DNA of 64,000 nucleotides from a bacterium (GCA_013360215.1 JABWCP010000001.1:89144-153143), one strand, 5' to 3'. Shown: positions 1 to 38,262, counted from the first letter of the stretch. Notes: a model not told the origin generated them from the sequence alone. Translations and numbers: made by a program.

Positions 1-530
1 GTTTTGACGTATTGGTAGGTATCAATCTTCTACGGGAAGGCTTGGATCTTCCGGAAGTTTCCCTGGTTGCCGTACTTGATGCCGACAAGGAAGGTTTTTT
101 GAGAAGTGAACGCTCGCTGATGCAAACAGCCGGACGTGCTGCGCGCAATGCCAACGGAACCGTGATTTTTTATGCCGATAAAATGACCGACTCAATGAAA
201 TTAGTCATTGATGAAACCGGTCGTCGCCGTGCCATGCAAATGGCGCATAACGAAAAACACGGTATAACGCCGACCACGGTTTTCAAATCAAAGGAACAAA
301 TTATCCGATCCACATCGGTTGCCGATTATTTTACGTACAAAGAAGGCCAGGAGGAAGCTCAAGCTTTAGCGGCAGCCGAAGCGACGATAGACTATCAGAC
401 CATGTTGAGCGCCGATGACCGCAAAGCCATGATAAGCAAACTCAAAACGGAAATGCAAGAAGCCGTAAAAAAATTGGAATTTGAACGTGCCGCCAGCCTC
501 CGGGACCAAATCATTCGCCTCGAAAAATAA
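1..530 (+). CDS. uvrB: Excinuclease ABC subunit B (UvrB), C-terminal portion; the 5' end of the gene lies upstream of the window
   Basis: Reading frame is open from base 3. Helicase C-terminal motifs ([49 protein letters not shown]). Terminal UVR domain ([17 protein letters not shown]). Confidence 0.9.
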
Positions 531-620
531 AACCAACACATCCGTATATCATAAATCCTCGCATAATTGTTTTTACTGTTTCTCGTTGGCATTTTAGCCG
601 CGTTCAATTATATTGCCACC

Positions 621-1424
621 ATGAAAAAATTGACCTCATGGTTTGCAATACTTTTGATTGCGACCGTTATCAAGTCCTGCGGCGGTTGTAATGAGCGACA
701 GCTTCTAGAAAAAGCAAAACCTTATTATGAAAAAGCCGTAGAACTTGAGCAAAACGGACAGTTTTCGTCAGCCGTGGCCTTTTACGATACGGCGATTCAG
801 ATTTTTCCGGATTACCGCGATGCTTATTTTCAAATGGGCACAGTTTATGAACGCCTCGTATTGCCGGAAAAGGCCGCCGCATCATACCGCACCGCAATCC
901 GCATTGACGCGGACTTTGCAGCCGCACATAACAACCTCGGCAATTGCTACGGAAAGCTCAACAAATTGGACAGCGCTTTGCTGCACTTGAAAAAAGCTAT
1001 CCAGTTGGATACTCAATCCCCTTCGGCTCATTACAATTTAGGTCACGCCGCATTGCTCAAAGGTGATTTCTTCGGGGCAGAAACAGCTTTTACTACAGCC
1101 TTAGCATTACGCCCGTCCGACCCTGATTATTTGCAGGCATTAGCAATGCTGTATGTTACACAAAACAAATTGGCCGAAGCACTGCCTCTTTATGAGCGCG
1201 CTGCCTTGCAACGTCCGGCGCAACCGGAATTGAGATACCGTATGGCGTTGGTATATCGCGATCAGAAAATGTACCCTTCGGCATTAACCGAACTTGAAGC
1301 CTACCTGAAAACGCGAACCGACCCCCAGGAACAAACGATGATAAGACGCCTGATCGGCGAAATAAAAGTCGAACAAAGTCGCGAAAAACTGGCTCAGGCA
1401 AGAAAAGTGTACCAAAAACCATAA
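621..1424 (+). CDS. TPR-repeat lipoprotein
   Basis: ATG at 621 gives MKKLTSWFAILLIATVIKSCGG, a lipoprotein-type signal peptide with Cys. Multiple TPR-like repeats follow (AxxYxxAI, NNLGNCY). Preferred over the ORF-track start at 567. Confidence 0.7.
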   Translation: MKKLTSWFAILLIATVIKSCGGCNERQLLEKAKPYYEKAVELEQNGQFSSAVAFYDTAIQIFPDYRDAYFQMGTVYERLVLPEKAAASYRTAIRIDADFAAAHNNLGNCYGKLNKLDSALLHLKKAIQLDTQSPSAHYNLGHAALLKGDFFGAETAFTTALALRPSDPDYLQALAMLYVTQNKLAEALPLYERAALQRPAQPELRYRMALVYRDQKMYPSALTELEAYLKTRTDPQEQTMIRRLIGEIKVEQSREKLAQARKVYQKP

Positions 1425-1489
1425 AAATTTCATTATTTTCCGTTTACCTTCTTTACCAAATTGTATTTATAACATAAGAAAAACGGCCC

Positions 1490-2074
1490 ATGAATTCTGG
1501 TTCTCCGGTTTACGAAAACGCTACGATAGAAACGGATCAGATACTGATCGAACGTATTCGCCGTGGTGATGAAAAAGCGCTCGTCACGATCTATCATAAT
1601 AATATCATGATGGTTCGCAAATATGTGATGGATAACAGCGGCCATGAAGACGACGCGCAGGATATGCTGCAGGATGCCATCGTTGTTCTTTGGGAAAATG
1701 TAACAAAAGGCCAGTTCGACTTGACTTCCAAGATCAGCACGTACCTTTATTCTGTGGTACGAAATAAATGGCTGCGGGAAATCAATAAACGCAAAATCGG
1801 CAAAACGAGCGATATTGCCGATTACGAAATGGCGGAAGAACAGATCGATGCCCTGCGCAGTGTGGTCCAAAAGGAAGAATTTAAGACTATTCTGCGTTGT
1901 ATCGAAAATATGGGCGCTACGTGCCGTAAACTGTTGATGATGTTTTATCTAGAAGAAAAAGGCATGGAAGAAATAGCTCATGAGTTAAAATTCAGCAATA
2001 CAGATGTCGCCAAGGCCAAAAAATGGCAATGCAAAAAAGAACTCGAAAAAATGGTCGAAAAAGCATTTCAATAA
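1490..2074 (+). CDS. ECF-type sigma-70 family RNA polymerase sigma factor
   Basis: 194 aa. Region 2 and region 4 signatures of the sigma-24 family (DAQDMLQDAIVVLWEN, LYSVVRNKWLRE, C-terminal HTH with EIAHELKFS). Confidence 0.8.
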   Translation: MNSGSPVYENATIETDQILIERIRRGDEKALVTIYHNNIMMVRKYVMDNSGHEDDAQDMLQDAIVVLWENVTKGQFDLTSKISTYLYSVVRNKWLREINKRKIGKTSDIADYEMAEEQIDALRSVVQKEEFKTILRCIENMGATCRKLLMMFYLEEKGMEEIAHELKFSNTDVAKAKKWQCKKELEKMVEKAFQ

Positions 2075-2127
2075 AACAGAAACTAAGCACAAGTAAAAAC
2101 AAATAACACGAAATGATGCGATAGAAT

Positions 2128-3033
2128 ATGGTAAATCCGATCGACCGCCAATGGCTTGATGAAAATGAGATTATAGATAAGTTTGTCTTCGGCAGACTGA
2201 CGGATAACGAATCTATCCGTCTGAGTGAATTACGTAAAAACGAAGATTTTAACGTGATGTTTGATCGCGAATTAATGACCATAGCCGCTTTGCGTGCACA
2301 TGGCCGCATGGCCATGAAACAACGCATTAGAGAATTGCTCCATACATCTTCTCCGCTACATTTATCGCACACCGCAAATCCGGCATCCGGAAAAGTAATG
2401 ACCATGCGTTTTGTGTGGCGTGCCGCAGCGGCCGTAGCTGTGATCGCCGGAGGACTCTGGATTTATAAGATGAATCTTCAACCGGCACCGGAAGTTGCTA
2501 AAAAACAAAATATTCAAAACGAGCAAGCACCGATTGTAAACACGGACAAACAGGCTCCTGCTCAAACGTCTACCGAGCCGGGTACTCCATCCAATGATGT
2601 AGCCGCAAAACGTACCAATAAACCCAACGAACGCAAGAGTATGATCGCCGGTCAGTTACCTCCGAGTAAAACTGATCGTACACGTCCGGCCGCTCTGGCT
2701 GCTGTTCCGCATGAAGTGTACGTGCCGATTTCAGTTTTGAATGCGACGGAATCCATAGAAACCCGTATTTTATTTAAAAATCCGTTCGACCTGGTTGCGG
2801 CGGATATACGCGAAACGCAGGATGAAAAGGACGGGCAGCTCAATTGGTTTTATGTGTACTACGAAAATCGTATCGTTAGCGCATATTTGGACAATTCTAA
2901 ATATGTAGCAAGATTTATCGGGACCCATCTGAAGGAAGAACCCGGGGTCTTGATAATAAATACGCCTCAATCCAAATATCGCGTTGATCTTACGACTAAA
3001 GAAAAATTCAAAAAAGCCGTACGCATTCCTTAA
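2128..3033 (+). CDS. Single-pass membrane protein, possible anti-sigma factor partner of the upstream ECF sigma
   Basis: Immediately downstream of the ECF sigma. One predicted TM helix (FVWRAAAAVAVIAGGLWIY) splits a cytoplasmic N-domain from a C-terminal domain. No recognisable ZAS motif, so function is inferred from context only. Confidence 0.4.
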   Translation: MVNPIDRQWLDENEIIDKFVFGRLTDNESIRLSELRKNEDFNVMFDRELMTIAALRAHGRMAMKQRIRELLHTSSPLHLSHTANPASGKVMTMRFVWRAAAAVAVIAGGLWIYKMNLQPAPEVAKKQNIQNEQAPIVNTDKQAPAQTSTEPGTPSNDVAAKRTNKPNERKSMIAGQLPPSKTDRTRPAALAAVPHEVYVPISVLNATESIETRILFKNPFDLVAADIRETQDEKDGQLNWFYVYYENRIVSAYLDNSKYVARFIGTHLKEEPGVLIINTPQSKYRVDLTTKEKFKKAVRIP

Positions 3034-3035
3034 CC

Positions 3036-3641
3036 ATGTGTGATTTTACGGGCATTATTCTGGCCGGCGGTCTATCCCAACGTATGGGTCAGGATAAATT
3101 TAGTCTCTATTTCTACGGAGTCCCACTTCTTAAGAATTTAGCTGATGAATTGGCTAAAACCGCACGCGAAATCCATATCGTAACTAAATCCCCTGACTCC
3201 TTAGCAGCGCTTAATATACATCACTCGATCATCACGGATGTGCATCCGTCGCGATCAGCGATGGCAGGAATCTATACCGGACTTCAATCCGCATTATATG
3301 ACCACGTATTTGTTTTAGCTTGTGATTTACCCCTTTTTGATCATCGCGTAACCACTCTGATGCAATCCAGATTGCTTCAGTTTGATACGATCGTCCCCCA
3401 AACACCCGGCGGCCTTGAAACGCTATGTGCATTTTACCACAAAAAACACCTTCCTATAATTGATTCGATGATCCGAGGCGAAAATTACCGCTTAACGGAT
3501 TTCCTGAATCAAACCAAAAATCTCGTTCTGCCTGCCTCACATTTTGAATCTGCAATTTACCCTGACGTTTTTTTTAACATGAATAGTCCTGAAGATTATT
3601 CGACAGCGTTAAAACTATTTAAAGATCGAAAAAACATCTAA
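3036..3641 (+). CDS. MobA-like NTP transferase (molybdenum cofactor guanylyltransferase family)
   Basis: N-terminal GIILAGGLSQRMGQDK nucleotidyltransferase signature; about 200 aa, typical of MobA/CofC-like enzymes. Confidence 0.6.
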   Translation: MCDFTGIILAGGLSQRMGQDKFSLYFYGVPLLKNLADELAKTAREIHIVTKSPDSLAALNIHHSIITDVHPSRSAMAGIYTGLQSALYDHVFVLACDLPLFDHRVTTLMQSRLLQFDTIVPQTPGGLETLCAFYHKKHLPIIDSMIRGENYRLTDFLNQTKNLVLPASHFESAIYPDVFFNMNSPEDYSTALKLFKDRKNI

Positions 3642-3780
3642 AAAGGGAATATAAAGGATATATAATTGCAACTTTTTTGGTGTTAAACGGTCTTTTTAAG
3701 AAAATATAAAAATCCTGCAACTTTTTGGGATTAAGCATCGTAAAAAACAAAGCTAACCATATAAGAGATAAGGGGCGACC

Positions 3781-5847
3781 ATGAAACTTTTCACGAAAAC
3801 TTTAACAGCAGTTTGTTTATTGATGCTTAGCTGGACATTTCCAGGTATGGCACAAAATGAAATGATTGACGAAGACGGTGTTGTTGCAGATGTGCGTGAG
3901 AAATATTTGGCCGATTCCAAATCGGTCCTTATATACAACGGTAATCGTGAAATTCCCGAAGGACGCACGATCAAAAGCGACATTTTACTGCTCAACGGCG
4001 ACCTTATTATTGCCGGTACTGTGGAAGGTAAAATTGTCGTTTCCAATGGAAATATCATCATGCGCGAAACCGGTTCGGTCACTCGTGATGCTGTCAGTAT
4101 CAACGGCCGCGTCGAAACGGTTAATTCCGATCAGATTGCAGGCAACATTCTGCAGGTAAAGTCCTCTCAGCGCTCAACGAATAAACAAGATATCGCCGCA
4201 AAGCAAGAATCTAATTTTTCAGCCGATGAATTTACAGCAGATGAAACATCAAGCGAAGCAACAGCTTACACTCCATCCGTCAAGTCGAATAGTTATCAAG
4301 AAAATGATCCCGAGGAATTAAACGATGATGAAACCTCCGTAACACCACCTACTGTCCAGCGTAAGGACGGTGCGCGGGTATATGACTATAAAAACAAACG
4401 TAAGAATAAAAGTATTACCCCGTATGTCGAAGTGCCACCTGTGGTAGAAGCTCCTAACGCGGACAACATGACCGAAGCGGATTGGAAGCGGTTCAATCGC
4501 GAGATGGAAAAGTTTAATCGTAAAATGGAAAAATTTAACCGCAAAATGGCACGGATGAATGAAACCGTCGAAAAAGATCTGCCGGAATACGAATATAACT
4601 ATACTCCCCAGACGGATGAAGACGACAATGAAGACGAAGATCGTTCGCACAGCGCTTCGTTTGTACGGGTGGATAATGTGCCTCGCCGTAATGAAGATCG
4701 TACAAGTCCGCGCTATTATTCACGCAATAATTATTGGGACAATCATCAGGAAAAACTTCGTAATACATCCTTCGTTCTTTTTGACTACAATCGTGTAGAC
4801 GGTCTTTATATCGGCGGCAAAATAGATCGTGACCATCAGATATATGATAACAAACCGTTTCAAATATATGGTGAAGCCGGTTATGCTTTCGGACCTAAAG
4901 ATTTCCATTACCGCCTTGGCCTGGATAAAATCTGGGGTGCGGAATACCGATTTACTTTAGGCGGCGAAGTACACGATCTTACGACGACAAATGATAATTG
5001 GATCGTCGGTCAGATGGAAAACGCCATGAATTCCATGCTGCTAAAAATAGACAATCGAGATTATTTTCGTACACGCGGTTTTAGTTTCCAAGCTCAGCAA
5101 AATCTGAACAGTCAATTCAAAATAAGCGTTGCATACAAAGTTGATGACTACTCGTCCGCATCCAATAATGTTAATTGGGCGCTTTTTCGGAGTAAAAAAA
5201 TTGACTTCCGAACAAACCCTATGATTGATGAAGGTCGCATGAACAGCGTTGTTGTACGTGCTGAACTCAATACGCGCGGATGGGTCTATAATAATCGCAA
5301 GTACAGCAAACGTGTAGGATGGGATATTTACGGCGAAGCCGAGCGTAGCCGCGATGAGTGGAATTCCAATTTTGATTTTTCTCGCTACGTTCTGAGCATC
5401 GCACGCTACCAACCGCTGAGCCGTTACGAAAATCTGGATATGCGCCTGATGTTGGGATCGGTGACCGGCACTGTCCCCGCTCAGAAAATGTTTCACCTCG
5501 GCGGCATCTCCACCTTACGCGGTCATGATTATAAAGCGATGTCGGGAAATCAAATGGCATTGGCTAATGTCGAATACCGCATCAGTTCCGGTGCTCTGAA
5601 AAATGATCGCATTTTCCCCATTCACCCGTTTAGTGCCATTTTATTTGCCGACGCCGGTTATGCATGGAATAATACGATTTATTCCATTCGCGAATTGGCT
5701 CGCGGAACCAATCTGCGCGATATACAAACCGACCTCGGCGTAGGTATTGGCGATGAAAATGACCTGTTCCGATTTGATATTGCCAAATCAGTAAGCGAAA
5801 AAGGCAGTCCTTACAAATTTGCATTCCGCGTGAATTACATTTTCTGA
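3781..5847 (+). CDS. Omp85/BamA-superfamily outer-membrane beta-barrel protein with an N-terminal bactofilin-like beta-helix region and heptad repeats (no POTRA detected)
   Basis: Signal peptide (MKLFTKTLTAVCLLMLSWTFPGMAQ). N-terminal GxIxVxNG repeats (DLIIAGTVEGKIVVSNGNIIMRETGSV) typical of polymer-forming cytoskeletal/bactofilin folds. Acidic linker and K/R-rich NR(E/K)MEKF repeats. C-terminal barrel carries the Omp85 signature FHLGGISTLRGHDY and a terminal aromatic (RVNYIF). Confidence 0.6.
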   Translation: MKLFTKTLTAVCLLMLSWTFPGMAQNEMIDEDGVVADVREKYLADSKSVLIYNGNREIPEGRTIKSDILLLNGDLIIAGTVEGKIVVSNGNIIMRETGSVTRDAVSINGRVETVNSDQIAGNILQVKSSQRSTNKQDIAAKQESNFSADEFTADETSSEATAYTPSVKSNSYQENDPEELNDDETSVTPPTVQRKDGARVYDYKNKRKNKSITPYVEVPPVVEAPNADNMTEADWKRFNREMEKFNRKMEKFNRKMARMNETVEKDLPEYEYNYTPQTDEDDNEDEDRSHSASFVRVDNVPRRNEDRTSPRYYSRNNYWDNHQEKLRNTSFVLFDYNRVDGLYIGGKIDRDHQIYDNKPFQIYGEAGYAFGPKDFHYRLGLDKIWGAEYRFTLGGEVHDLTTTNDNWIVGQMENAMNSMLLKIDNRDYFRTRGFSFQAQQNLNSQFKISVAYKVDDYSSASNNVNWALFRSKKIDFRTNPMIDEGRMNSVVVRAELNTRGWVYNNRKYSKRVGWDIYGEAERSRDEWNSNFDFSRYVLSIARYQPLSRYENLDMRLMLGSVTGTVPAQKMFHLGGISTLRGHDYKAMSGNQMALANVEYRISSGALKNDRIFPIHPFSAILFADAGYAWNNTIYSIRELARGTNLRDIQTDLGVGIGDENDLFRFDIAKSVSEKGSPYKFAFRVNYIF
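4495..4557 (+). repeat. Three consecutive imperfect 21-nt in-frame tandem repeats, encoding NREMEKF / NRKMEKF / NRKMARM
   Basis: Units aatcgcgagatggaaaagttt / aatcgtaaaatggaaaaattt / aaccgcaaaatggcacggatg read directly from the sequence, inside the Omp85-like CDS. Confidence 0.8.
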
Positions 5848-5870
5848 TTTGATACAAACTTATCGTACAA

Positions 5871-5900
5871 CCCCGCTTCGTCATCCGATGCGGGGTTTTT
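5871..5900 (+). terminator. Rho-independent terminator after the Omp85-like gene
   Basis: CCCCGC..GCGGGG stem followed by TTTTTATTTT. Confidence 0.75.
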
Positions 5901-5985
5901 ATTTTACATGCATTATCAGGCTTGAATGAAAATATCCTTTAAGGTATATTGTTCAGATTTTTATGAACTTACTATTATTTTTATG

Positions 5986-7149
5986 GCATTTCGTTTAGCT
6001 AATCGTTTTGAAGAATTGCCCGTACATGCTTTTGCCGAGGTGGATCGCCTCAAACGCGAAGCCATTGCCCAAGGAAAAGACGTTATAGATTTGGGTGTAG
6101 GTGACCCCGATGTTCCCACCCCACAACCTATCATAGATGCTTGCACCAAGGCGCTACAAAAACCGGCCAACCACCGATACCCCTACCAAGCCGGTTCAAT
6201 GCGTTTTAGGGAAAGTGTTTCGGCTTTTATGAAAAGACGATACGATGTAACGGTAGATCCTCAACGCAATATCGTTCCTTTGATCGGTTCCAAAGAAGGT
6301 ATAGCCCATTTTCCGATCGCTTTTGTAAATCCGGGTGAAACCGTCATTGCACCGGATCCTGGTTATCCGGCCTATGTGACGGGAACTAAATTAGCCGGCG
6401 GCGTGCTCCATTCGATACCGTTATTAGCAAAAAATCGTTTTCTGATGCCGCTCAATGAAATCCCTGCCGATGTCGTAAAACGTGCACGATTGATGTTTTT
6501 CAATTATCCCAACAACCCGACTACCGGTTGGGCGGATCGAAGTGATTTCGAATCCATCGCTCAGTTCTGTAAAACTAACGACATTATTGCTGCTCATGAC
6601 GCGGCATATCAGGAACTTTTCTTCGAAGAAGCACCACCCAGTCTGATGCAAACAACATGCGGTCTTGACGGCGGCATCGAATTCCATTCGCTGTCTAAAA
6701 CTTTTAACATGACCGGATGGCGCGTCGGATTTGCCGTTGGCGAACCTTCCTTGATCGCCGGACTGTCCAGACTCAAAGCCAACATAGATACCGGTTTATT
6801 CTTAGCGTTACAAGAGGCGGCCGCGTTTGCATTGGATCATTGCGAAGAATTTACGAAACCTATGATCGAATTATATAGACGCCGTAAAGATACGGTAGTG
6901 CAAGGGCTCAATGCGGCCGGATTCAAAAGTCATCATGGCAAAGCAACCATTTACGTATGGACAGAAGTGCCCGGCGGTTCAGATTCAATGACCTTTACTA
7001 AACAATTATTGGATAAAACAGGAGTCGTTGTAACACCCGGTTCGGCGCTCGGTCAGTCCAGCGGATCGTACTTTCGCATTGCGCTGACACAGTCCGAAGA
7101 ACGTCTCTCGGAAGCCGTGCGGCGTATGGCGGCTTTTGCTAAAGCGTAA
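5986..7149 (+). CDS. Class I pyridoxal-phosphate-dependent aminotransferase (LL-diaminopimelate/aspartate aminotransferase-like)
   Basis: Start chosen at MAFRLANRFEELPVHAF. Fold-type I aminotransferase motifs (DLGVGDPD, GSKEGIAH, NYPNNPTG, SLSKTFNMTGWRVG with the PLP-binding Lys). Confidence 0.7.
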   Translation, partial: AFRLANRFEELPVHAFAEVDRLKREAIAQGKDVIDLGVGDPDVPTPQPIIDACTKALQKPANHRYPYQAGSMRFRESVSAFMKRRYDVTVDPQRNIVPLIGSKEGIAHFPIAFVNPGETVIAPDPGYPAYVTGTKLAGGVLHSIPLLAKNRFLMPLNEIPADVVKRARLMFFNYPNNPTTGWADRSDFESIAQFCKTNDIIAAHDAAYQELFFEEAPPSLMQTTCGLDGGIEFHSLSKTFNMTGWRVGFAVGEPSLIAGLSRLKANIDTGLFLALQEAAAFALDHCEEFTKPMIELYRRRKDTVVQGLNAAGFKSHHGKATIYVWTEVPGGSDSMTFTKQLLDKTGVVVTPGSALGQSSGSYFRIALTQSEERLSEAVRRMAAFAKA

Positions 7150-7150
7150 C

Positions 7151-7525
7151 ATGAAAAATAACGATAAAATCCGACTCGTCAATCTGATCATTTATGCTCA
7201 TCATGGTGCACATGAAGAGGAGCGGCGCTTAGGTCAGCGCTTTGAAATCGATGTTGAACTTGGACTTGATTTCCAACCGGCGGCGCTCGCCGATGATTTG
7301 CATCTGAGCGTGGACTACGGCACCGTGTATCAGCGCATTCACACTGTCGTCACGGAAAAGAAATATTACCTGATTGAGGCGGTCGCTGAAAATATCGCGC
7401 AGCGACTACTTAATGATTTCCCGATACAGGTCGTCACAGTCTGTGTCCGTAAACCGAGTGTTCCCATTCACGGTTCCTTGGATCATGTGGAAGTTGAAAT
7501 CACCCGTGAAAGAAAAACCACATGA
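7151..7525 (+). CDS. folB: Dihydroneopterin aldolase
   Basis: IRLVNLIIYAHHGAHEEERRLGQRFEIDVEL is the FolB signature. Size is about 120 aa. Confidence 0.8.
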   Translation: MKNNDKIRLVNLIIYAHHGAHEEERRLGQRFEIDVELGLDFQPAALADDLHLSVDYGTVYQRIHTVVTEKKYYLIEAVAENIAQRLLNDFPIQVVTVCVRKPSVPIHGSLDHVEVEITRERKTT

Positions 7526-8064
7526 AAAGTAAAGTACTGCTCAGCTTAGGCTCCAACATAGGTGATCGGATGCAGCATCTTCGCGAAGCTGTTGATCTAA
7601 TGAGCCGATTTGCCGGCATTACACAGATCGCATCCATTTATGAAACCGAGCCGGTTAGCCCGATCATGCAGGATAATTATTACAATACGGCTATGATCAT
7701 TGATACGGACTTAGATGCTCAGAGCCTCATGAAAAAACTATTAGACGTAGAAAAATCATTAGGTCGTGAAAGAACGATTCCCGGGAACGCACGCACGATT
7801 GATTTGGATATTATATTGTTTGGTGATCTCATTATGAATACGTCGGATACGGTCATCCCCCATCCGCGTTTTGCAGAGCGAAATTTTGTTCTCGTACCGT
7901 CGGCCGAAATTGCCGGGAATTGGCTTTGCCCGGTTCGGCACCTCACGATACAGGAAATTCTAAATCTATCCCGTGATACGCATCACGTACAATGCGCCGT
8001 TTCGCGGGACAATCCCGACGCCATCTTTCACTTATTACCGATGGGAGACGCGATTGGCCACTGA
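7522..8064 (+). CDS. folK: 2-amino-4-hydroxy-6-hydroxymethyldihydropteridine pyrophosphokinase (HPPK)
   Basis: LSLGSNIGDR, IDLDIILFGD and PHPRFAERNFVLVP motifs. Overlaps the folB stop (ATGA coupling). Confidence 0.85.
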   Translation: MKSKVLLSLGSNIGDRMQHLREAVDLMSRFAGITQIASIYETEPVSPIMQDNYYNTAMIIDTDLDAQSLMKKLLDVEKSLGRERTIPGNARTIDLDIILFGDLIMNTSDTVIPHPRFAERNFVLVPSAEIAGNWLCPVRHLTIQEILNLSRDTHHVQCAVSRDNPDAIFHLLPMGDAIGH

Positions 8065-8710
8065 CGAAAAAATACGATTTATCGCCATAGAAGGCGTCCT
8101 TAAGCCGGAAAACACCGCGCTCGCACGCAATCTTTCCCAGATGGCCAATGCCCGACCCATTTTGGAAGCCGAATTTCTTTCTCCATTGGTTAACATTCAC
8201 AGCACCGATCCCAAAGATATGGCCTTCAAAAAGCATATGCTGCACCTTATGGATCGGTATAAAATGCTCAAACAGATTCATCAGACTGAGATTTTTTTTG
8301 AACAGGTCATTTGCGATTATCTTTTTTATGCCGATCGCGTATATGCGAACCTGAAACTTGATAACGAAGATATGCATCTGTACGATACGATGATGAATGT
8401 GATGGAACGCGAATTACCCATACCGGATCTGGTCATCTATCTTCAGAGTAATATTGACACCGTGATGGAAAAAATTCACACCCGGCATGCACTCGGTAAT
8501 GCAAGCAAAGAACGGCAACGCATGGACGAAGCCTACATCGCAGCGCTCAACGAAGAGTTCAATCAATTTTTTCTTTATTACCGTTGGTCACCGGTGCTTA
8601 TTGTTAACGCCAATCAATTAGACCCGGAAAATACCCATCACCTCGAAGATCTTTACCAACGTTTAGATACGCGCTTATCCGGCGTAGTTTACTATAATCC
8701 GCCGGCCTGA
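8054..8710 (+). CDS. Deoxynucleoside-kinase-fold protein with a degenerate P-loop
   Basis: Matches the dNK/dCK/dGK family outside the P-loop (RFIAIEG..., FYADRVYANL, lid-like KERQRMDEAY). The canonical GxGK(S/T) is replaced by GVLKPENT. Start is uncertain (TTG near 8054; the ORF track's 7973 start lies inside folK). Confidence 0.5.
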   Translation: MATDEKIRFIAIEGVLKPENTALARNLSQMANARPILEAEFLSPLVNIHSTDPKDMAFKKHMLHLMDRYKMLKQIHQTEIFFEQVICDYLFYADRVYANLKLDNEDMHLYDTMMNVMERELPIPDLVIYLQSNIDTVMEKIHTRHALGNASKERQRMDEAYIAALNEEFNQFFLYYRWSPVLIVNANQLDPENTHHLEDLYQRLDTRLSGVVYYNPPA

Positions 8711-8729
8711 ATCCCCGAAAGGACGGATC

Positions 8730-9785
8730 ATGCGTGCCCCATCATCATTGCGCGATAACCTCCGATCACTTGTCCAAGAAGGAACACTGTATAAACAAAC
8801 CGACGACGGTCGTGTGCAATGTTACGCGTGCGGTCATCGCTGCATCATCGGCGAAGGGCGCGATGGTATTTGCAAAGTTCGCTTCAACCGCAATAATAAA
8901 TTATGGGTTCCCCACGGATATACGGCCGGCATACAACTTGATCCCGTCGAAAAAAAACCATTCTTTCACGTGTTTCCCGGCAGCACAGCGATGAGTTTTG
9001 GAATGTTAGGATGCGATCTGCACTGCGCGTATTGCCAAAACTGGATCACATCCCAAGCCTTGCAAGACCCATACGCCGGCGTACCGCCCCGTCTTATCAC
9101 CGCCGCCGAATTGGCCCAACATGCATCGGATCATGGCGCGCGCCTTCTCACAAGTACCTATAATGAACCGCTCATCACCGCCGAATGGGCGGTGCGCGTC
9201 TTTGAAGAAGGACAACGCCTAGGTTTATACGGTGCCTTTGTATCCAATGGCAATGCAACACCGGAAGTTTTAACTTTTCTGCGTCCGTATGTTTCTATGT
9301 ACAAAGTAGATCTCAAAAGTTTTAACGACAAAAATTATCGGAAGCTCGGTACCACGTTAAAAAATGTAACCGACAGCATAGAAAAAATTCATGCCATGGG
9401 TTTTTGGTTGGAAATCGTAACCCTGATCGTTCCGGGCTTTAATGATTCGGATGCCGAACTGCAGGGCATGGCATCATTTATAAAAAAAATTTCATCCGAT
9501 ATACCCTGGCATGTCACGGCGTTTCATCCTGACTACAAGATGACCGATCCGGATGAAACCGATGCCGATACATTAGCACGCGCAGCACATATCGGTAAAA
9601 ACGAAGGCCTGCATTTTGTATATACCGGAAATCGCCCGGGTGAACTGCGTGATATGGAAAACACGTACTGCCCGGGATGCAAAGCATTGTTAGTAAAACG
9701 CCACGGTTATCGCATTCAGCAAAATAGGATTATCCACGGAAAATGCCCGAATTGCGATCGGAAAATTCCCGGCTATTGGTCCTAA
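8730..9785 (+). CDS. Radical SAM enzyme of the AmmeMemoRadiSam / PFL-activating-enzyme-like type
   Basis: CDLHCAYCQNW radical-SAM cluster motif. Upstream Cys-rich N-terminus (CYACGHRC...C). Overall similarity to AmmeMemoRadiSam-system radical SAM proteins. Confidence 0.75.
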   Translation: MRAPSSLRDNLRSLVQEGTLYKQTDDGRVQCYACGHRCIIGEGRDGICKVRFNRNNKLWVPHGYTAGIQLDPVEKKPFFHVFPGSTAMSFGMLGCDLHCAYCQNWITSQALQDPYAGVPPRLITAAELAQHASDHGARLLTSTYNEPLITAEWAVRVFEEGQRLGLYGAFVSNGNATPEVLTFLRPYVSMYKVDLKSFNDKNYRKLGTTLKNVTDSIEKIHAMGFWLEIVTLIVPGFNDSDAELQGMASFIKKISSDIPWHVTAFHPDYKMTDPDETDADTLARAAHIGKNEGLHFVYTGNRPGELRDMENTYCPGCKALLVKRHGYRIQQNRIIHGKCPNCDRKIPGYWS

Positions 9786-24894: not shown

Positions 24895-27800
24895 ATGAGA
24901 GGTAGTTTTTACTCTCGTAATTGGCGTGGCGCTTTTGTGTATATGGCAATGTTCTTATTTGCCCTTACACTTAACCTCCGCGCTCAGGTGACCACATCTG
25001 CCATAAGCGGTATGGTCAAAGATAATAACGGCACACCGCTTCCGGGCGTCAACATAGTCGCCGTACACGAGCCATCAGGAACAAAATCAGGAACCTATAG
25101 TCGTTCCGACGGTCGCTTTAATATTCCCGGTATGCGTGTTGGTGGTCCTTATACGATTACCGCCTCAATGATCGGATACAAAGAGCACAAAATTGAAAAT
25201 ATCAACCTTGCTCTCGGCGAAGACAAAAATCTTTCATTTGTATTGGTTGAAGAAGCGGTAGAAATGGAAGGTTCCGAAATTGTTGCTGAGCGTAATCCGA
25301 TCATCAGCGATACGCGAACAGGGGTAGCCCAGTCAGTTTCAACAAAAGAAATTGAAAACCTCCCTACTATTTCTCGTAGTTTTGACGATTTCACGCGCCT
25401 TACCCCTCAATTTTCCGGTAATAGCGCAGCTGGCCGCAATAATCGTTATAACTCAATTCTCATTGACGGCGCCGTAAACAACGATTTGTTTGGGTTAGCC
25501 GCAAGCGGTACACCCGGCGGCCAGGCTGGTACCCAACCTATCAGTTTGGATGCCATTCAGGAGTTTCAGGTAGAAATTGCACCGTATGATGTTCGTAAAG
25601 GAGGGTTTACGGGCGGTGGAATTAACGCAGTAACGCGCTCTGGAACAAATAAGTATGAAGGCTCAGGCTACTACTATTTTCGAAATGAAAGCTTTGTCGG
25701 CAAGTACGAAAACGCAACATCTTATGCAAATTTAGACGAAAAAGTCGCCGGTTTCCGTATTGGCGGCCCCATAATTAAAGATCAATTATTTTTCTTCGTA
25801 AATGGCGAGTATTCTACCCGCACAACCCCTACACCGCTTGGTATACTTGGTAACGGAAAAAGCAACGATTTCACCGGTATATCATCATCCGATGCGCAAC
25901 GCGCGATACGGATATTGGATTCGGTCTATAACTACAAAGCCGGCGGTTATGGTATCCAAGATTTGAAACGCCCCAATACCAAATTTTTTGCTCGTCTTGA
26001 CTACAATTTAAACAACCAACATCGTCTTACCTTACGTCATAACTTCGTCGACGCAAGCGATGACAATCTGTCCCAGTCATTAAGTTCGACCTCTGCGAAC
26101 TCAGGTTTTCGTTTGAGTGATGCAGGTTATGAATTCTTGAGCACTACGAACTCAACCGTGTTCCAGGTAAATAGCGTCATCACAAACGAATTGCACAACG
26201 AAGCAATTATCGGTTACTCCACAGTTAGAGATCGTCGAAAAATCAACGGATCGCCTTTTCCGGCTATTAACGTTCGCATTGGGAGTAATACTCTGATTGC
26301 GGGTAGTGAAAATTTTTCACAAGCAAACAGTTTGGATCAGGATATTCTTGAAATCACAAATAATTTGACGTACTACATGGGTGACCATACAATTATGGCC
26401 GGCACTCATAATGAGTTTTTCTCTTTCAAGAACGTTTTCATTCGTGATTTTTACGGCAATTATACTTTTAGCAATCTTGACTCATTAGCCGTAGGATCTC
26501 CCAGTTCTTATGGTTTGAGCTATTCTTTGGATACCAATAATTTAAAACCCAGCGCCAAATTTGATGTCCAACAATATGGATTTTACGTTCAAGATATGTG
26601 GCGAGTTACTCCTACAATGAATGTGACATTGGGTCTTCGTTTTGACTTACCGGTATTGCCGACCAATCCGACCAATAACCCCACCGTTGATACAACCGTA
26701 TTTGCGGGCGGTTTGAAGCTAAAAACTTCCGAGGTCCCGAGCGGAAATTTGCTCTTTTCACCTCGACTTGGATTTAACTGGGATGTGAAGGGTAACAATA
26801 CTACCCAGGTTCGTGGTGGCATCGGTATTTTCTCCGGACGTACTCCCTATGTATGGATTTCTAACCAGTATGGAAATACGGGTATTGAAATTGGCCGCAC
26901 AACAACCAATCCTGGGCCGCGAAGCTTCAGAACAGATGTCAACAACCAACCCGGGAAAGTATATACTGCCCCACCCAGCGAAATTGATTTGACCGATCCA
27001 GATTTTAAATTACCCCAAGTTTATCGATTAAATCTGGGCGTTGATCACGAGCTGCCGATGGGCATTACCGGCACAGTTGATTTTCTGTTGTCAAAAAATA
27101 AAAATGATATCCTCTATCAGGATATTAATCTTGTTGGCTCTTCAGGTACTTTGCAACTCAGCAATAGCGGTGACGAGGACGGAAATCGTGTCCGTTACAC
27201 AACTACGCCGACGAGCACCACGGTAAACAAAATTCGCAGCCAGTACTCCAACGTTATTTATTTAACAAACGCGGATTACGGATACGAATATAGTTTTACA
27301 ACTCAACTGAGAAAATCTTTTTCAGCTGGATTATTTGGTAGCTTTGACAAAGGATTTTTTGCAAGCATCGCATACACGTATGGACGTGCATTTGACAATA
27401 ACAGCGGTACCTCCAGCCAAGCGTTTTCAAACTGGCGGTTTAATCCAGTCAAACAAGATCCAAATAACGCACCATCCGCTACGTCAAACTATGAGACACG
27501 TCATCGGATTATCAGCTCCGTGGTTTATGATTTTGAATTCATACCTAAATACACGACAACTGTCTCTTTGTTTTACAACGGATTCTCAGGTAGGCCTTAT
27601 TCCACAACGTATGACGGTGATGTCAACGGCGACGGCCAGACGTCCAATGATTTGATTTATGTTCCCAAGGATCGTAACGATATTAATATCGTTCCTGCTA
27701 CAGCCAGTGGTGGTGCGCCAGCCGATACGCGTACCGCGGATCAGATTTGGGTTGCACTCGACGAGTATATCTCCGGCGATCCTGTTTTACGTAAATCAAG

Positions 27801-28146
27801 AGGTAAAATTATTAGCCGAAATGCAAGCCGTGAACCATGGACTAACCGACTTGATTTCCGCCTTGCGCAAGAAATACCTGTCGCCGAACAATGGGGCAAG
27901 TTCGAATTGACTGCGGACATTCTCAATTTGCTCAATTTTCTTAATGAATCTTGGGGATTGTCGGAATTTGTTAACAATCAAAACAACAGCGCTATTGTTT
28001 ACCGCGGTATCATCAGTGGCAAACCTGCATTTACATTCGGAAAGTATAATTTCCTCACAAAAGAATACGAAAACCCAAAACGCACCCAAGTCAGTGATTT
28101 GGCATCACGTTGGCAGTTGCAGCTCGGCGTTCGCTATACTTTCTAA
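24895..28146 (+). CDS. TonB-dependent outer-membrane receptor with an N-terminal carboxypeptidase-regulatory-like domain
   Basis: AAGGAG RBS. Signal peptide. CarbopepD-reg-like N-domain (SGMVKDNNGTPLPGVNIV). Plug and 22-strand-barrel-sized body (1083 aa). C-terminal LQLGVRYTF. Confidence 0.8.
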   Translation: MRGSFYSRNWRGAFVYMAMFLFALTLNLRAQVTTSAISGMVKDNNGTPLPGVNIVAVHEPSGTKSGTYSRSDGRFNIPGMRVGGPYTITASMIGYKEHKIENINLALGEDKNLSFVLVEEAVEMEGSEIVAERNPIISDTRTGVAQSVSTKEIENLPTISRSFDDFTRLTPQFSGNSAAGRNNRYNSILIDGAVNNDLFGLAASGTPGGQAGTQPISLDAIQEFQVEIAPYDVRKGGFTGGGINAVTRSGTNKYEGSGYYYFRNESFVGKYENATSYANLDEKVAGFRIGGPIIKDQLFFFVNGEYSTRTTPTPLGILGNGKSNDFTGISSSDAQRAIRILDSVYNYKAGGYGIQDLKRPNTKFFARLDYNLNNQHRLTLRHNFVDASDDNLSQSLSSTSANSGFRLSDAGYEFLSTTNSTVFQVNSVITNELHNEAIIGYSTVRDRRKINGSPFPAINVRIGSNTLIAGSENFSQANSLDQDILEITNNLTYYMGDHTIMAGTHNEFFSFKNVFIRDFYGNYTFSNLDSLAVGSPSSYGLSYSLDTNNLKPSAKFDVQQYGFYVQDMWRVTPTMNVTLGLRFDLPVLPTNPTNNPTVDTTVFAGGLKLKTSEVPSGNLLFSPRLGFNWDVKGNNTTQVRGGIGIFSGRTPYVWISNQYGNTGIEIGRTTTNPGPRSFRTDVNNQPGKVYTAPPSEIDLTDPDFKLPQVYRLNLGVDHELPMGITGTVDFLLSKNKNDILYQDINLVGSSGTLQLSNSGDEDGNRVRYTTTPTSTTVNKIRSQYSNVIYLTNADYGYEYSFTTQLRKSFSAGLFGSFDKGFFASIAYTYGRAFDNNSGTSSQAFSNWRFNPVKQDPNNAPSATSNYETRHRIISSVVYDFEFIPKYTTTVSLFYNGFSGRPYSTTYDGDVNGDGQTSNDLIYVPKDRNDINIVPATASGGAPADTRTADQIWVALDEYISGDPVLRKSRGKIISRNASREPWTNRLDFRLAQEIPVAEQWGKFELTADILNLLNFLNESWGLSEFVNNQNNSAIVYRGIISGKPAFTFGKYNFLTKEYENPKRTQVSDLASRWQLQLGVRYTF

Positions 28147-35785: not shown

Positions 35786-38167
35786 CTAAAATTCTAGGTT
35801 ACCAAACGGAATCTGAACACGCAGCACAATATTGCGACCGGGATCATCTATATAATATCGAAACCGGCTCAGATAATTCGCGTACCGCGTATTGAATACA
35901 TTATTGATGGCCAGACTGATCGTGATCGGCGACCAGGATGTATGCCATTCGCACCCAACTTCAAAATCAACCGTCACATAGCCGGGTGGCGGAGTGACCG
36001 TAACCGAGTCGGCATCGTTTACAAACGTCTCGGCACCTTCAGGTACATGCGATTGACGGCGATACCATGTTATCCCGATATCCACATACGGTTCATGGAT
36101 CGTACCCGCATCTGAAAAATGCCAATGCATAAGTCCACTAAATCGGTCGGAAGGCATATAAATCAGGGGCTCATCTTTTTTCAAATCGCGACCGCGCACG
36201 ATAGACCATCCGGCATCAAGACGCACAATGTCAAGGGCATGCCATTGGATCTGACCGTCAATACCGGTCAATTGAGCTTCGGTCTGCGCATAACGAAACG
36301 TCGGAAAAGCCCCCCTGATCGTGAGCGTAGGTTTACGCGATGGATACAAATGAATATAGTTATCCATGCGGTTTACAAACACACTCACATCGCCGTTGAT
36401 CTTTTCACTGTTATGATGCAAAGTGATATCCGTACTGTAGCTTTTTTCTACACCCATCGCAGGATCGCCGATTTCGTATTGTGCCGTGCCATGGTGAACT
36501 CCGTTACTATATAACTCATTTACTCCCGGCGGTCGCCACGCCGTACCGGCATTGATCCCGATTGACCAATATTCCGCAAAACGCCGGTTCACACCGACGG
36601 CCGCCGAAGTACTGCGATAAACATGGTCTTCATTTTCATTTACACCCAACTTCAACTGTTGTTGTGCTGTAAAGGAAGCATCCAGCCATCGTTGGTCATA
36701 GCGTAACCCCGCCTCTGCTGACCAATCATCTTGCACCCATTTTTCGATCCAGTACAGACCGGCATTATATGTACGGAAACTGGGAATCAGACGTATCGCT
36801 TGATTGACATTGCGCTGCCGCATGACATTGACGCCGATGGTTCCGGCAAAGTCCCCGATCGGACGATGACGCCATCGTACATCGGCGGTGTAGGTGTACA
36901 GCGAAAGATCAAAGGAAGGTTTTTTTAAATCCTCGGCCGGTGTACCGAGCGGCTTATGCGAATCAAACTCCTGACGATGATTGCGTTGCCAACCGCCCTG
37001 AAATTCGAAACGATCACCGGCATCCGTTTGACGGTGCACACGAGCTGATATCAGATCATGAGTGATTACCTGACGTGGATTTCCGATCGCGAAGGAAAAA
37101 TCATCCTCGGTTAATGGAACACGGTTGCGTTTTATCGCAGCGATAAGATCGCTGGTATTCCCGATATGCGAACCTTTGTAGATACCAAGTTCCGTTCCAA
37201 AATGACTATAATACAATTGCGATTCCCAGCGATGGTTTCGAAATCCCACCGCCGCAGATCCGTTGAACTCCTGAAATCCGGAATTACCTATGACATAACG
37301 CGGTGTTTGAGCATTACCCGCCTTACGCCCGCTGACCTGTGCACGCCAACCAAAACCGGGTTTATTGGCAAGGCCCCCTTCGATTCGCAATGCTCCGGCC
37401 ATTTGGCGATTATTGGTAAAACCGTTGAGAGAGAGCTCGCCTCCGATTCCGGCATGTTCCGGTAACGGACTTGGCTCTACACGTATCACGCCGCCGATAG
37501 CACCTGCTCCGTATTCTAAACCCGAAGCGCCGCGTATCACCGTAATGCTTCCGGCCGCAAACGGATCTATTTCGGGTGCGTGTTCCCCTCCCCACTGCTG
37601 TCCTTCCTGCGTTACGCCGTCATTGAGCACGACGACGCGTTGGCTATGCAGGCCGCGCACTACCGGTTTGGCAATCGACGGACCGGTTTGGAGTAACGAG
37701 ACCCCCGGAACATCCTTTAGGGTTTCTCCCAGGGTTTGTCCGCGATGTTGATCCAGCTGCCCTTCATCCAGTGCCGTCACGGATTGATAGGAATCCATTA
37801 CATTATCCCGCTCCACGGTTACAGTTGAACCTTCGATCTGTAACGGATCCGGAGTTAATGTGATGTCCAATGTTATTGAACGATTGAGTTCGATCGTTTT
37901 TTTATAAATACCGTAACCGATGATCTGGGCCGTAACTTCATACGTACCGGCCTTGAGACCGCTGATCACATAATGACCGTGCGCATCCGTAATTGTTCCC
38001 TTTTTTAAGGCGGGAAAAAATACAGACACACCGGGTAATCCATCATGGGTATCTTTATCGTACACAGTTCCGCTGAGTTTGAATGTCTCACCGGGATTTT
38101 CTTCAGCAACAGCCGTCGAAAAACCAAATATGAGCATGACCCAAACCACAACGGAAGTACGATGCAT
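35786..38167 (-). CDS. TonB-dependent outer-membrane receptor (CarbopepD-reg N-domain plus plug plus barrel)
   Basis: Start at MHRTSVVVWVMLIFGFSTAVA signal peptide. SGTVYDKDTHDGLPGVSV carboxypeptidase-regulatory-like domain. Plug region (DEGQLDQHRGQTLGETLKDVPGV). Terminal aromatic residue. Confidence 0.8.
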   Translation of the reverse strand: MHRTSVVVWVMLIFGFSTAVAEENPGETFKLSGTVYDKDTHDGLPGVSVFFPALKKGTITDAHGHYVISGLKAGTYEVTAQIIGYGIYKKTIELNRSITLDITLTPDPLQIEGSTVTVERDNVMDSYQSVTALDEGQLDQHRGQTLGETLKDVPGVSLLQTGPSIAKPVVRGLHSQRVVVLNDGVTQEGQQWGGEHAPEIDPFAAGSITVIRGASGLEYGAGAIGGVIRVEPSPLPEHAGIGGELSLNGFTNNRQMAGALRIEGGLANKPGFGWRAQVSGRKAGNAQTPRYVIGNSGFQEFNGSAAVGFRNHRWESQLYYSHFGTELGIYKGSHIGNTSDLIAAIKRNRVPLTEDDFSFAIGNPRQVITHDLISARVHRQTDAGDRFEFQGGWQRNHRQEFDSHKPLGTPAEDLKKPSFDLSLYTYTADVRWRHRPIGDFAGTIGVNVMRQRNVNQAIRLIPSFRTYNAGLYWIEKWVQDDWSAEAGLRYDQRWLDASFTAQQQLKLGVNENEDHVYRSTSAAVGVNRRFAEYWSIGINAGTAWRPPGVNELYSNGVHHGTAQYEIGDPAMGVEKSYSTDITLHHNSEKINGDVSVFVNRMDNYIHLYPSRKPTLTIRGAFPTFRYAQTEAQLTGIDGQIQWHALDIVRLDAGWSIVRGRDLKKDEPLIYMPSDRFSGLMHWHFSDAGTIHEPYVDIGITWYRRQSHVPEGAETFVNDADSVTVTPPPGYVTVDFEVGCEWHTSWSPITISLAINNVFNTRYANYLSRFRYYIDDPGRNIVLRVQIPFGNLEF

Positions 38168-38262
38168 CGTTAAAATAGGCATGCATTTCCTTCGTGTAGA
38201 TCGCGGCAAACTAAATGTCGCCGGATACAATCATGAAACCAAAAGGGAGTTTTAAATGGAAA

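Follow-up and report, generated by a model that had tools for sequence, protein, structure and literature searches.

Omp85 proteins form the core machinery for building the outer membranes of bacteria and organelles, and their handling of substrates is attributed to the periplasmic POTRA domains. A 64-kb stretch of bacterial DNA (JABWCP010000001.1, positions 89144 to 153143, assembly GCA_013360215.1; a single strand, analyzed over its full length and referred to here as the window) encodes a protein that raises the question of what an Omp85 barrel might do when it has no POTRA and of how its gene is controlled. The gene, at window positions 3781 to 5847 on the + strand, is the last in a string of four genes at 1490 to 5847. 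It is preceded by genes for a sigma factor of the extracytoplasmic function (ECF) type, a membrane protein designated open reading frame 2 (ORF2), and a MobA-like nucleotidyltransferase. A preliminary description of the string, made without database searches, had called attention to an unfamiliar combination of domains in the barrel protein and had proposed, from the linkage to the sigma gene, a surface or secretion function controlled by envelope stress. We find that the protein, of 688 amino acids (aa), is best described as a new Omp85 subfamily with predicted sigmaE/sigmaW-like regulatory logic.

The C-terminal part of the protein is an Omp85 barrel that ends in phenylalanine, as the preliminary description had proposed. 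Residues 438 to 682 matched Pfam Omp85 (PF01103) with 34.4 bits against a gathering cut-off of 24. An AlphaFold2 model, built with 20 homologues as input, had a mean per-residue confidence (predicted local distance difference test [pLDDT]) of 66.6, the overall confidence being moderate because of the linkers. The model comprised a signal peptide, an all-β segment at residues 49 to 126 (pLDDT 80 to 91), disorder at 127 to 226, a helix at 232 to 263, further disorder at 264 to 330, and 16 strands at 331 to 684. Counting strands with DSSP and comparing structures with Foldseek delimited a 16-stranded Omp85 barrel at residues 331 to 688 (4771 to 5844, + strand), which matched BamA barrels with an E value of 1e-13 and also matched those of TamA and Sam50. 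The loop-6 motif GGISTLRGHDY (5500 to 5532), in which R580 is invariant, lies between strands 11 and 12, and the FxDxG motif of strand 13 is FADAG (5644 to 5658; F622-A-D624-A-G626), in which F622 and G626 are invariant, as is the final residue, F688. Loop-6 (V/L)RG(F/Y) and strand-13 FxDxG are the lid-lock features of Omp85 proteins (PMC11358297); the fourth motif residue is His here (TLRGH) and Y or F in some homologues. The protein belongs to the Omp85 superfamily, every defining feature of the barrel being present. No POTRA was found in it, neither as a fold in the AlphaFold2 model nor as a Pfam match.

What takes the place of POTRA is a domain with the fold of bactofilins. A Sec signal peptide with a hydrophobic N terminus (residues 1 to 25; 3781 to 3855, + strand) is cleaved, by prediction, after a conserved A-Q, A24 and Q25 being near-invariant in the family alignment. 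The following right-handed β-helix (residues 41 to 128; 3901 to 4164, + strand) is an 88-aa domain that is confidently folded in the structure prediction, and its core can be superimposed on BacA or the Thermus bactofilin. Because the domain sits behind a signal peptide, it is expected to be extracytoplasmic. The Pfam Bactofilin family (PF04519) scored 16.0 bits with the full protein (residues 59 to 112) and 19.2 bits with the domain alone, which is below the cut-off of 27.9. A sequence search of the PDB with a profile of the domain gave marginal matches only (LptA, E = 0.07; bactofilin, E = 0.18 to 0.7), and therefore a fold search was needed. Its top matches include the β-helices of autotransporters and TpsA proteins, and bactofilins match equally well.

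The same profile, run against 1.84 billion representative proteins, matched 4907 of them at E < 1e-3. The top 148 matches divide into 54 with an Omp85 barrel and 94 without one, although some of the 94 are fragments of Omp85 homologues. The remaining non-Omp85 matches among these 148 are secreted or membrane-anchored proteins with one to five copies of the domain, which occurs commonly in proteins that have an N-terminal or C-terminal transmembrane anchor. Some of these profile-linked relatives exceed the Pfam Bactofilin threshold, and there is weak overlap with the Toastrack family DUF4097. The N-domain is bactofilin-like by fold and by its profile-linked relatives, although it falls below the Pfam threshold in the window protein. 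Thus, the preliminary assignment of the N-region to a bactofilin-like β-helix rather than POTRA was borne out. Bactofilins polymerize independently of nucleotides into cytoplasmic filaments. Unlike bactofilins (PF04519; BacA 2N3D, Thermus 6RIA), the domain in the window protein is exported behind a signal peptide, is fused to an outer-membrane barrel, and has a sub-threshold score.

The β-helix is tethered to the barrel by three segments, among them the acidic stretch and the NR(E/K)MEKF heptads that had been noticed before. The first is a disordered acidic and polar linker (residues 129 to 226; 4165 to 4458, + strand; pLDDT <50), which is 18% D+E and 34% S/T/N/Q and is only 2 to 9% identical to that of close homologues. 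Within it, Tandem Repeats Finder detected a 15-nt repeat in two copies (TTTACAGCAGATGAA) at 4216 to 4245 that encodes FSADEFTADE. The second is a charged helix of heptad repeats (residues 227 to 263; 4459 to 4569, + strand), in which a 21-nt tandem repeat of 2.8 copies at 4491 to 4549 encodes FNREMEK-FNRKMEK-FNRKMAR. Methionine and phenylalanine alternate in it with 3-4 spacing, the canonical heptad pattern, and the helix may pair as a coiled coil. Its identity is 30 to 59% in most close homologues and 16% in homologue P0007. The third segment is another, mostly disordered linker (residues 264 to 330; 4570 to 4770, + strand) with a conserved motif, SASFVRV. The barrel is 57 to 64% and the β-helix 35 to 59% identical to those of close homologues, and the idea that the β-helix is more conserved than the barrel was ruled out because the identities per region show the opposite.

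The unfamiliarity of this domain combination was upheld in one respect and not in another. The combination of Omp85 with a bactofilin-like domain is not mentioned in the Omp85/TpsB classification paper (PMC4104836) and was not found by full-text literature searches. However, the protein is not a one-off, since relatives of it are encoded in at least 175 genomes when each species is represented by one genome. A word-indexed protein search returned only 34. The best 80 relatives, the ones that were assigned to groups, fall into a CLD3-like clade, Ignavibacteria/Ignavibacteriales, KSB1 with Zhuqueibacterota, and metagenome-assembled genomes (MAGs) with miscellaneous "Bacteroidota" labels; the group names come from MAG record titles and one contig name, and MAG labels are unreliable. 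Relatives in the CLD3-like clade are 45 to 53% identical and have the layout of the window protein. All of the relatives found are from uncultured organisms.

A hidden Markov model of the β-helix matched 62 of the 85 Omp85 homologues in the loci of relatives (designated by L numbers below) and none of the other ORFs there. Among 81 non-redundant loci, 46 have one copy of the β-helix, 11 have three in tandem, 1 has two, and 23 have none. The triple-copy members, which are 740 to 785 aa long, are of the KSB1/Zhuqueibacterota type, and one of these 11 loci (L056, 9563 to 11782) answers the search for Omp85-bactofilin fusions that the preliminary description had proposed: its protein exceeds both Pfam thresholds (Bactofilin, 47.6 bits; Omp85, 47.5 bits). 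Members without a β-helix are 420 to 500 aa long, and a further branch of the family has a helical N-region. Extra, shorter Omp85-like ORFs, which are paralogues, lie within 10 kb of a family member in some loci (L021, 88 to 1314; L024, 3355 to 4590; L040, 38 to 607). On the sequences compared, the architecture defines an undescribed family that is common in uncultured Ignavibacteria-like bacteria.

How is this family controlled? A predicted ECF-type promoter (3716 to 3742, + strand) occupies part of the 139-nt gap upstream of the Omp85 gene, with 38 nt between it and the ATG. It consists of TGCAAC (3716 to 3721), a T-tract, and CGTA (3739 to 3742), with 17 nt between AAC and CGTA. The orthologue of L004 has GAAAC-N17-CGTA 44 nt before its ATG, in surroundings that cannot be aligned. 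A strict pattern, G[ACT]AAC-N-T-N14-15-CGTA, was searched on both strands of 2.7 Mb of relative loci and gave 69 matches, against ~15 expected by chance (arithmetic from the pattern); in the 64-kb window, the promoter at 3716 to 3742 is its sole match. Directly upstream of an Omp85 homologue, in the same orientation, lie 38 of the 69 matches; 6 more are upstream of an adjacent gene, of a family that we designate u595, that precedes Omp85, and 5 are upstream of Toastrack genes just downstream of Omp85. The starts of ORFs in the fetched loci were called mechanically, and several of the remaining matches are Omp85 upstream regions with a miscalled start. The rate of strict matches near Omp85 starts is ~90-fold above that in the rest of the sequence.

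The motif is present in most members with a single β-helix (38 of 46), 30 to 70 nt upstream. Positions that the pattern leaves free are conserved too: T follows AAC in 31 of 39 cases and is continued by a TTT run, and C or T precedes the G in 39 of 39. The resulting consensus, (C/T)G(A/C/T)AACTTTT-N12-13-CGTA, has the same form as the sigmaW-type ECF promoter of Bacillus subtilis, tGAAACnTTTt with a -10 element of CGTA (PMC5758882). AAC and CGT elements are 16 to 17 nt apart, are in the orientation of the gene, and are kept in orthologues. Because the motif is conserved upstream of family members, ECF-dependent transcription of the family is well supported as a prediction. ECF control is therefore likely, as the preliminary description had it, but the real evidence for it is this conserved promoter, not the linkage to a sigma gene. 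At 3667 to 3692 (+ strand), 49 nt upstream of this predicted promoter, a degenerate second copy of the -35-like element, TGCAACTTTTTT, is accompanied by a poor -10 (CGGT) and could mark a duplicated promoter or a second one.

The four ORFs of the string (1490 to 2074, 2128 to 3033, 3036 to 3641, and 3781 to 5847, all on the + strand) are separated by gaps of 53, 2, and 139 nt, which confirms the co-directional arrangement with short gaps described before. The first encodes an ECF (group IV) sigma-70 factor of 194 aa. It scored 69.2 bits with TIGR02937 sigma70-ECF (cut-off 42.9) and 33.8 bits with Sigma70_r2 (cut-off 24), whereas r4_2, at 18.4 bits, was below its cut-off. Its orthologues are 62 to 77% identical across the clade. 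ORF2 (2128 to 3033, + strand) encodes a single-pass membrane protein of 301 aa. In an alignment of five orthologues, an N-terminal region of ~75 aa and a C-terminal domain of ~100 aa are conserved; between them lie a transmembrane helix at residues ~97 to 113 and a linker that varies. Position and single-transmembrane topology make ORF2 a candidate anti-sigma factor, which is as far as the preliminary assignment holds, since no sequence test supports it. Searches of Pfam with the five orthologues and of the PDB gave no match; NCBIfam "antisigma" scored 15.9 bits against a cut-off of 100 (E = 0.01); hhalign found no similarity (probability 0.2%) to the zf-HC2 anti-sigmas that neighbor Omp85 homologues in other lineages; and the sole match in a database search was a 97%-identical copy. 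The third gene (3036 to 3641, + strand) encodes a MobA-like nucleotidyltransferase of the NTP_transf_3 family, 201 aa long (PF12804, E = 1e-26). The broad PF12804 alone is satisfied, whereas the MobA equivalogs are not (PRK00317, 106.6 against 164; TIGR02665, 81.3 against 151.85).

The four genes do not form a conserved operon, and here the preliminary view of a single gene string failed. The full order TPR-sigma-ORF2-MobA-Omp85 was found in two places only, the window lineage (L005, 98.7% nucleotide identity) and one MAG, GCA_031402315.1. Close relatives keep the order Omp85-aminotransferase-FolB-HPPK-deoxynucleoside kinase-radical SAM, and the genes upstream of it there are unrelated and divergent. 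Orthologues of the sigma gene always stand in the order uvrB-TPR-sigma-membrane protein of ~310 aa, usually with an NTP_transf_3 gene next. The order sigma/~310-aa protein/NTP_transf_3 is kept in L004, L087, and L089, and in the latter two the block ends without an Omp85 gene. A MobA-like gene was found beside the Omp85 gene in 0 of ~75 other loci. ORF2-like and MobA-like genes touch or overlap in several lineages (window, 3033 to 3036; L087, 7569; L089, 7548), which suggests translational coupling inside the sigma block. We assign the MobA-like gene to the sigma block, because the order of the block is conserved without Omp85 and because this gene touches or overlaps the ORF2-like one; it is probably unrelated to the function of the barrel. 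Judged by these gene orders, the sigma block next to the Omp85 gene is a lineage-specific juxtaposition.

The genes that adjoin the sigma block and the Omp85 homologues in other genomes bear on a role in envelope stress. L005 reaches 4.2 kb further upstream than the window and encodes, at 696 to 1784 on its minus strand (~2.4 to 3.5 kb upstream of window position 1), an HtrA/DegP-like protease (Trypsin_2 and PDZ) preceded by GGAAC-N17-CGTA. The same htrA-like gene in L087 (1009 to 2079) has TGTAACTTTT...CGTA 59 nt upstream. The gene adjoins the sigma block in both L005 and L087 and is divergently oriented in L005. DegP/HtrA is a hallmark member of envelope-stress ECF regulons. The sigma factor of the window is the best candidate regulator because its gene is adjacent here and is linked to a motif-bearing htrA-like gene in two genomes, and it may fire the Omp85 promoter.

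In KSB1, Zhuqueibacterota, and others, two Toastrack genes (LiaF_C, DUF4097) follow the Omp85 gene in a conserved operon, in most cases after an intervening epimerase gene. Examples are L056 (12208 to 15327) and, without the epimerase gene, L023 (11207 to 13065) and L006 (9660 to 11393). Toastrack domains recur as partners of envelope-stress systems, and one such protein of B. subtilis, whose gene shares an operon with a pspC homologue, has been linked to envelope stress (PMC11237479). Among the Toastrack proteins that neighbor Omp85, 33 of 35 have signal-peptide-like N termini. We take the B. subtilis protein just mentioned to be YvlB and its operon to be sigmaW dependent. The u595 proteins, often encoded at these loci too, are secreted, are ~600 aa long with four internal repeats of ~140 aa, and match no Pfam family (e.g., L033, 7889 to 9676; L062, 956 to 2773; L056, 15437 to 17149). 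Their genes adjoin Omp85 forms that lack the β-helix in 17 of 23 loci, and 6 copies have the ECF motif upstream. The usual order in Ignavibacteria is pdxJ(-)/Omp85/M14 peptidase/ECF sigma/zf-HC2 anti-sigma, the last three genes being ~1.5 to 2 kb downstream of Omp85 in L030, L051, L060, L077, L080, L081, and others.

In our judgment it is somewhat probable that the window protein is a POTRA-less accessory Omp85 that has its own ECF-dependent promoter and is part of an envelope-stress regulon. Envelope damage would free the sigma factor (1490 to 2074) from ORF2, and transcription of the htrA-like gene, the Omp85 gene, and other genes would follow. The barrel would insert into the outer membrane while its N-region stays in the periplasm. 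There the tethered β-helix could serve as a protein-protein docking module or as a self-associating one, possibly assisted by coiled-coil pairing of the heptad helix. Together, the β-helix and the lateral gate of the barrel would help to assemble, anchor, or stabilize envelope proteins under stress.

Several points weigh against this interpretation. The Omp85 promoter is a motif prediction. In GCA_964415295.1 the sigma/membrane-protein/MobA block and the Omp85 homologue share a contig but are ~125 kb apart, and the adjacency of sigma and Omp85 genes arose in one or two lineages only, so that the sigma factor is no more than a candidate for the cognate one. In five lineages, the regions ahead of the sigma and TPR genes lack an autoregulatory ECF motif and have instead a conserved sigma70-like GTTTAC...TAtttA element. 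The ignavibacterial ECF sigma gene has its own conserved promoter, GGAACT-N16-tCGTGTT, unlike the Omp85 motif, and therefore that sigma is probably not the regulator. The window encodes no Toastrack or u595 partner; a tblastn search of the window for Toastrack, u595, zf-HC2, and M14 partners found none. The comparison of the β-helix domain with the LiaF_C/Toastrack, DUF4097, and u595 families by hhalign revealed no similarity, which leaves a "Rosetta-stone" homology argument unsupported. The periplasmic location of the β-helix is assumed by analogy with general Omp85 topology, and autotransporter and TpsA β-helices are among its top structural matches. Insertase, anchor, or scaffold activity is likewise a proposal.

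Those structural matches raise the possibility of a fused two-partner or autotransporter-like system of the type V kind, in which the β-helix would be a passenger that passes through, or is helped by, the barrel and is displayed at the surface on the long acidic stalk. In those lineages that lack the fusion, the cargo would be the neighboring secreted Toastrack β-helix proteins. Like TpsB/FhaC and the type Vd protein PlpD, the window protein has an N-terminal module before an Omp85-type barrel, the fold of the module resembles secreted β-helical passengers and TpsA, and the domain order is passenger-like. However, the protein has neither POTRA nor a patatin domain, and to our knowledge every characterized TpsB and type Vd transporter uses POTRA. 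Furthermore, any right-handed β-helix matches autotransporter passengers, and bactofilins match as well; the helix is not directly before strand 1 but 67 residues upstream; the same domain is frequent in transmembrane-anchored proteins, which could not be secreted in this way; and no two-partner secretion (TPS)-domain protein is encoded nearby in the window, the neighbors of Omp85 being the MobA-like enzyme and the aminotransferase. We regard this system as unlikely. By analogy with FecI-FecR-FecA, the barrel might instead be a transducer that senses a cue from the outer membrane or from outside, with the β-helix contacting the C-terminal periplasmic domain of ORF2, the sigma being released, and the barrel gene being induced. 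The succession of sigma, membrane protein, (MobA-like enzyme), and a barrel with an N-terminal periplasmic extension is similar; as in fecIR-fecA, the barrel gene has an ECF promoter and the promoter of the sigma gene is sigma70-like; a flexible linker of ~200 residues could span the periplasm; ORF2 has a conserved periplasmic C-terminal domain; and 16 of the 46 single-copy homologues have an ECF/zf-HC2 pair within 6 kb. Nevertheless, the protein is an Omp85 without the features of a TonB-dependent receptor, ORF2 has no detectable similarity to FecR or to anti-sigma families, some family members lack the β-helix, and the linkage is not conserved, as the 125-kb separation in a close relative illustrates. 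A transducer of this kind is accordingly rather more doubtful.

The co-directional genes, their short gaps, the single strong terminator after the last of them, and the recurrence of the same four-gene order in GCA_031402315.1 would all suit one operon with a shared function, with the MobA-like enzyme and the barrel serving one pathway (molybdoenzyme export, for example, or modification of the envelope). We consider this very unlikely, given that the Omp85 gene has its own predicted promoter, that the blocks of L087 and L089 end without it, that close relatives keep Omp85 and its downstream genes behind other upstream genes, and that none of the ~75 other loci pairs it with a MobA-like gene. 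Hardly credible is the notion that the protein is the canonical BamA of the genome with a degenerate N terminus. It shares with BamA and TamA the 16-stranded barrel, the loop-6 Arg-Gly motif, the strand-13 FxDxG, and the C-terminal aromatic residue, and the 64-kb window contains no second Omp85 gene. In contrast with BamA and TamA, it carries a bactofilin-like β-helix on a long disordered tether instead of POTRA, and the N terminus of the family varies (zero, one, or three β-helices, or helical), unlike that of an essential, conserved machine. Some loci contain paralogues within 10 kb, the predicted promoter is a stress-type one, and a BamD/YfiO homologue in a close relative (L087, 11652 to 12476) points indirectly to a normal β-barrel assembly machinery (BAM) complex in the clade. 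In E. coli, bamA itself belongs to the sigmaE envelope-stress regulon.

A POTRA-less accessory Omp85 thus remains our preferred interpretation, and the absence of POTRA is the reason that we do not assign the protein to BamA, TamA, TpsB, or type Vd. Among the closest described classes are the Omp85 proteins termed "noNterm" (Heinz & Lithgow 2014, PMC4104836; Leptospira LIC12252/12254/12258, PMC11358297), POTRA-less accessory paralogues that have been proposed to help in adapting to harsh conditions. Family members without the β-helix would fit that class. The window protein would not, because it has a folded N-domain: 330 residues, including the 88-aa domain, precede the barrel, rather than a stub. 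Neither PMC4104836 nor PMC11358297 mentions a bactofilin or DUF583 N terminus. The first half of the barrel in most homologues aligns to model positions ~300 to 580 of DUF5686 (PF18939, Bacteroidota), but mostly with sub-threshold scores, and the window protein has no DUF5686 match. The predicted regulon resembles those of B. subtilis sigmaW and E. coli sigmaE in the form of the promoter and in predicted members, an HtrA/DegP-like protease and Toastrack proteins. It differs in that the hosts here are diderm bacteria of the Fibrobacterota-Chlorobiota-Bacteroidota (FCB) group, that the similarity of the sigma factor is at the level of the family only, and that its members are known from motif predictions.

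Other features of the window complete the description of the locus. The TPR-repeat protein gene (567 to 1424, + strand; Pfam TPR_1 and others) is the upstream neighbor of the sigma block kept in relatives, the order uvrB-TPR-sigma being present in L004, L087, and L090. Comparison by eye of the regions upstream of sigma orthologues predicts a candidate housekeeping-type promoter of the sigma gene at 1443 to 1471 (+ strand; TTTACC, 17-nt spacer, TTTATA), whose GTTTAC core is kept in five lineages and differs from the ECF motif. A (C)GTTTAC(C/A) element, followed after 17 nt by an A/T-rich hexamer, is present at 1440 to 1471 of the window and upstream of the sigma orthologues of L004, L087, L089, and L090. 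Matches in a generic sigma70 promoter scan were not above those in shuffled sequence. The strong terminator reported to follow the string was recovered as an intrinsic hairpin with a U-run at 5869 to 5897 (+ strand; free energy -18.2 kcal/mol, z = -4.8), which a pattern scan also detected; an Rfam search of window positions 1 to 9000 gave no match. Downstream, 5926 to 9785 encodes aminotransferase, FolB, HPPK, deoxynucleoside kinase, and radical SAM proteins, a block in synteny with the Omp85 gene throughout the CLD3-like clade. Two further genes for large outer-membrane barrels are at 24895 to 28146 (CarboxypepD_reg and OMP_b-brl_4) and 35786 to 38230 (CarboxypepD_reg, Plug, and TonB-dependent receptor). 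Such large CarboxypepD_reg-type barrel genes are typical of FCB-group bacteria.

For specialists in outer-membrane biogenesis, this family is a concrete case of Omp85 barrels that would work without POTRA, with a bactofilin-like β-helix in its place across several poorly studied phyla. The consensus and the members compiled here would constitute the first predicted envelope-stress regulon for Ignavibacteria, KSB1, and CLD3-type bacteria, and bactofilin-like domains would be extended to the periplasm of diderm bacteria. It is conceivable, though improbable, that the family represents an unrecognized envelope system of the FCB group, either a POTRA-independent branch of type V/two-partner secretion that exports or displays small β-helix modules, fused or as separate Toastrack proteins, under ECF stress control, or a barrel that anchors a self-associating, bactofilin-like scaffold in the periplasm. 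If true, the scaffold form would be the first "cytoskeletal" β-helix polymer tied to the outer membrane.

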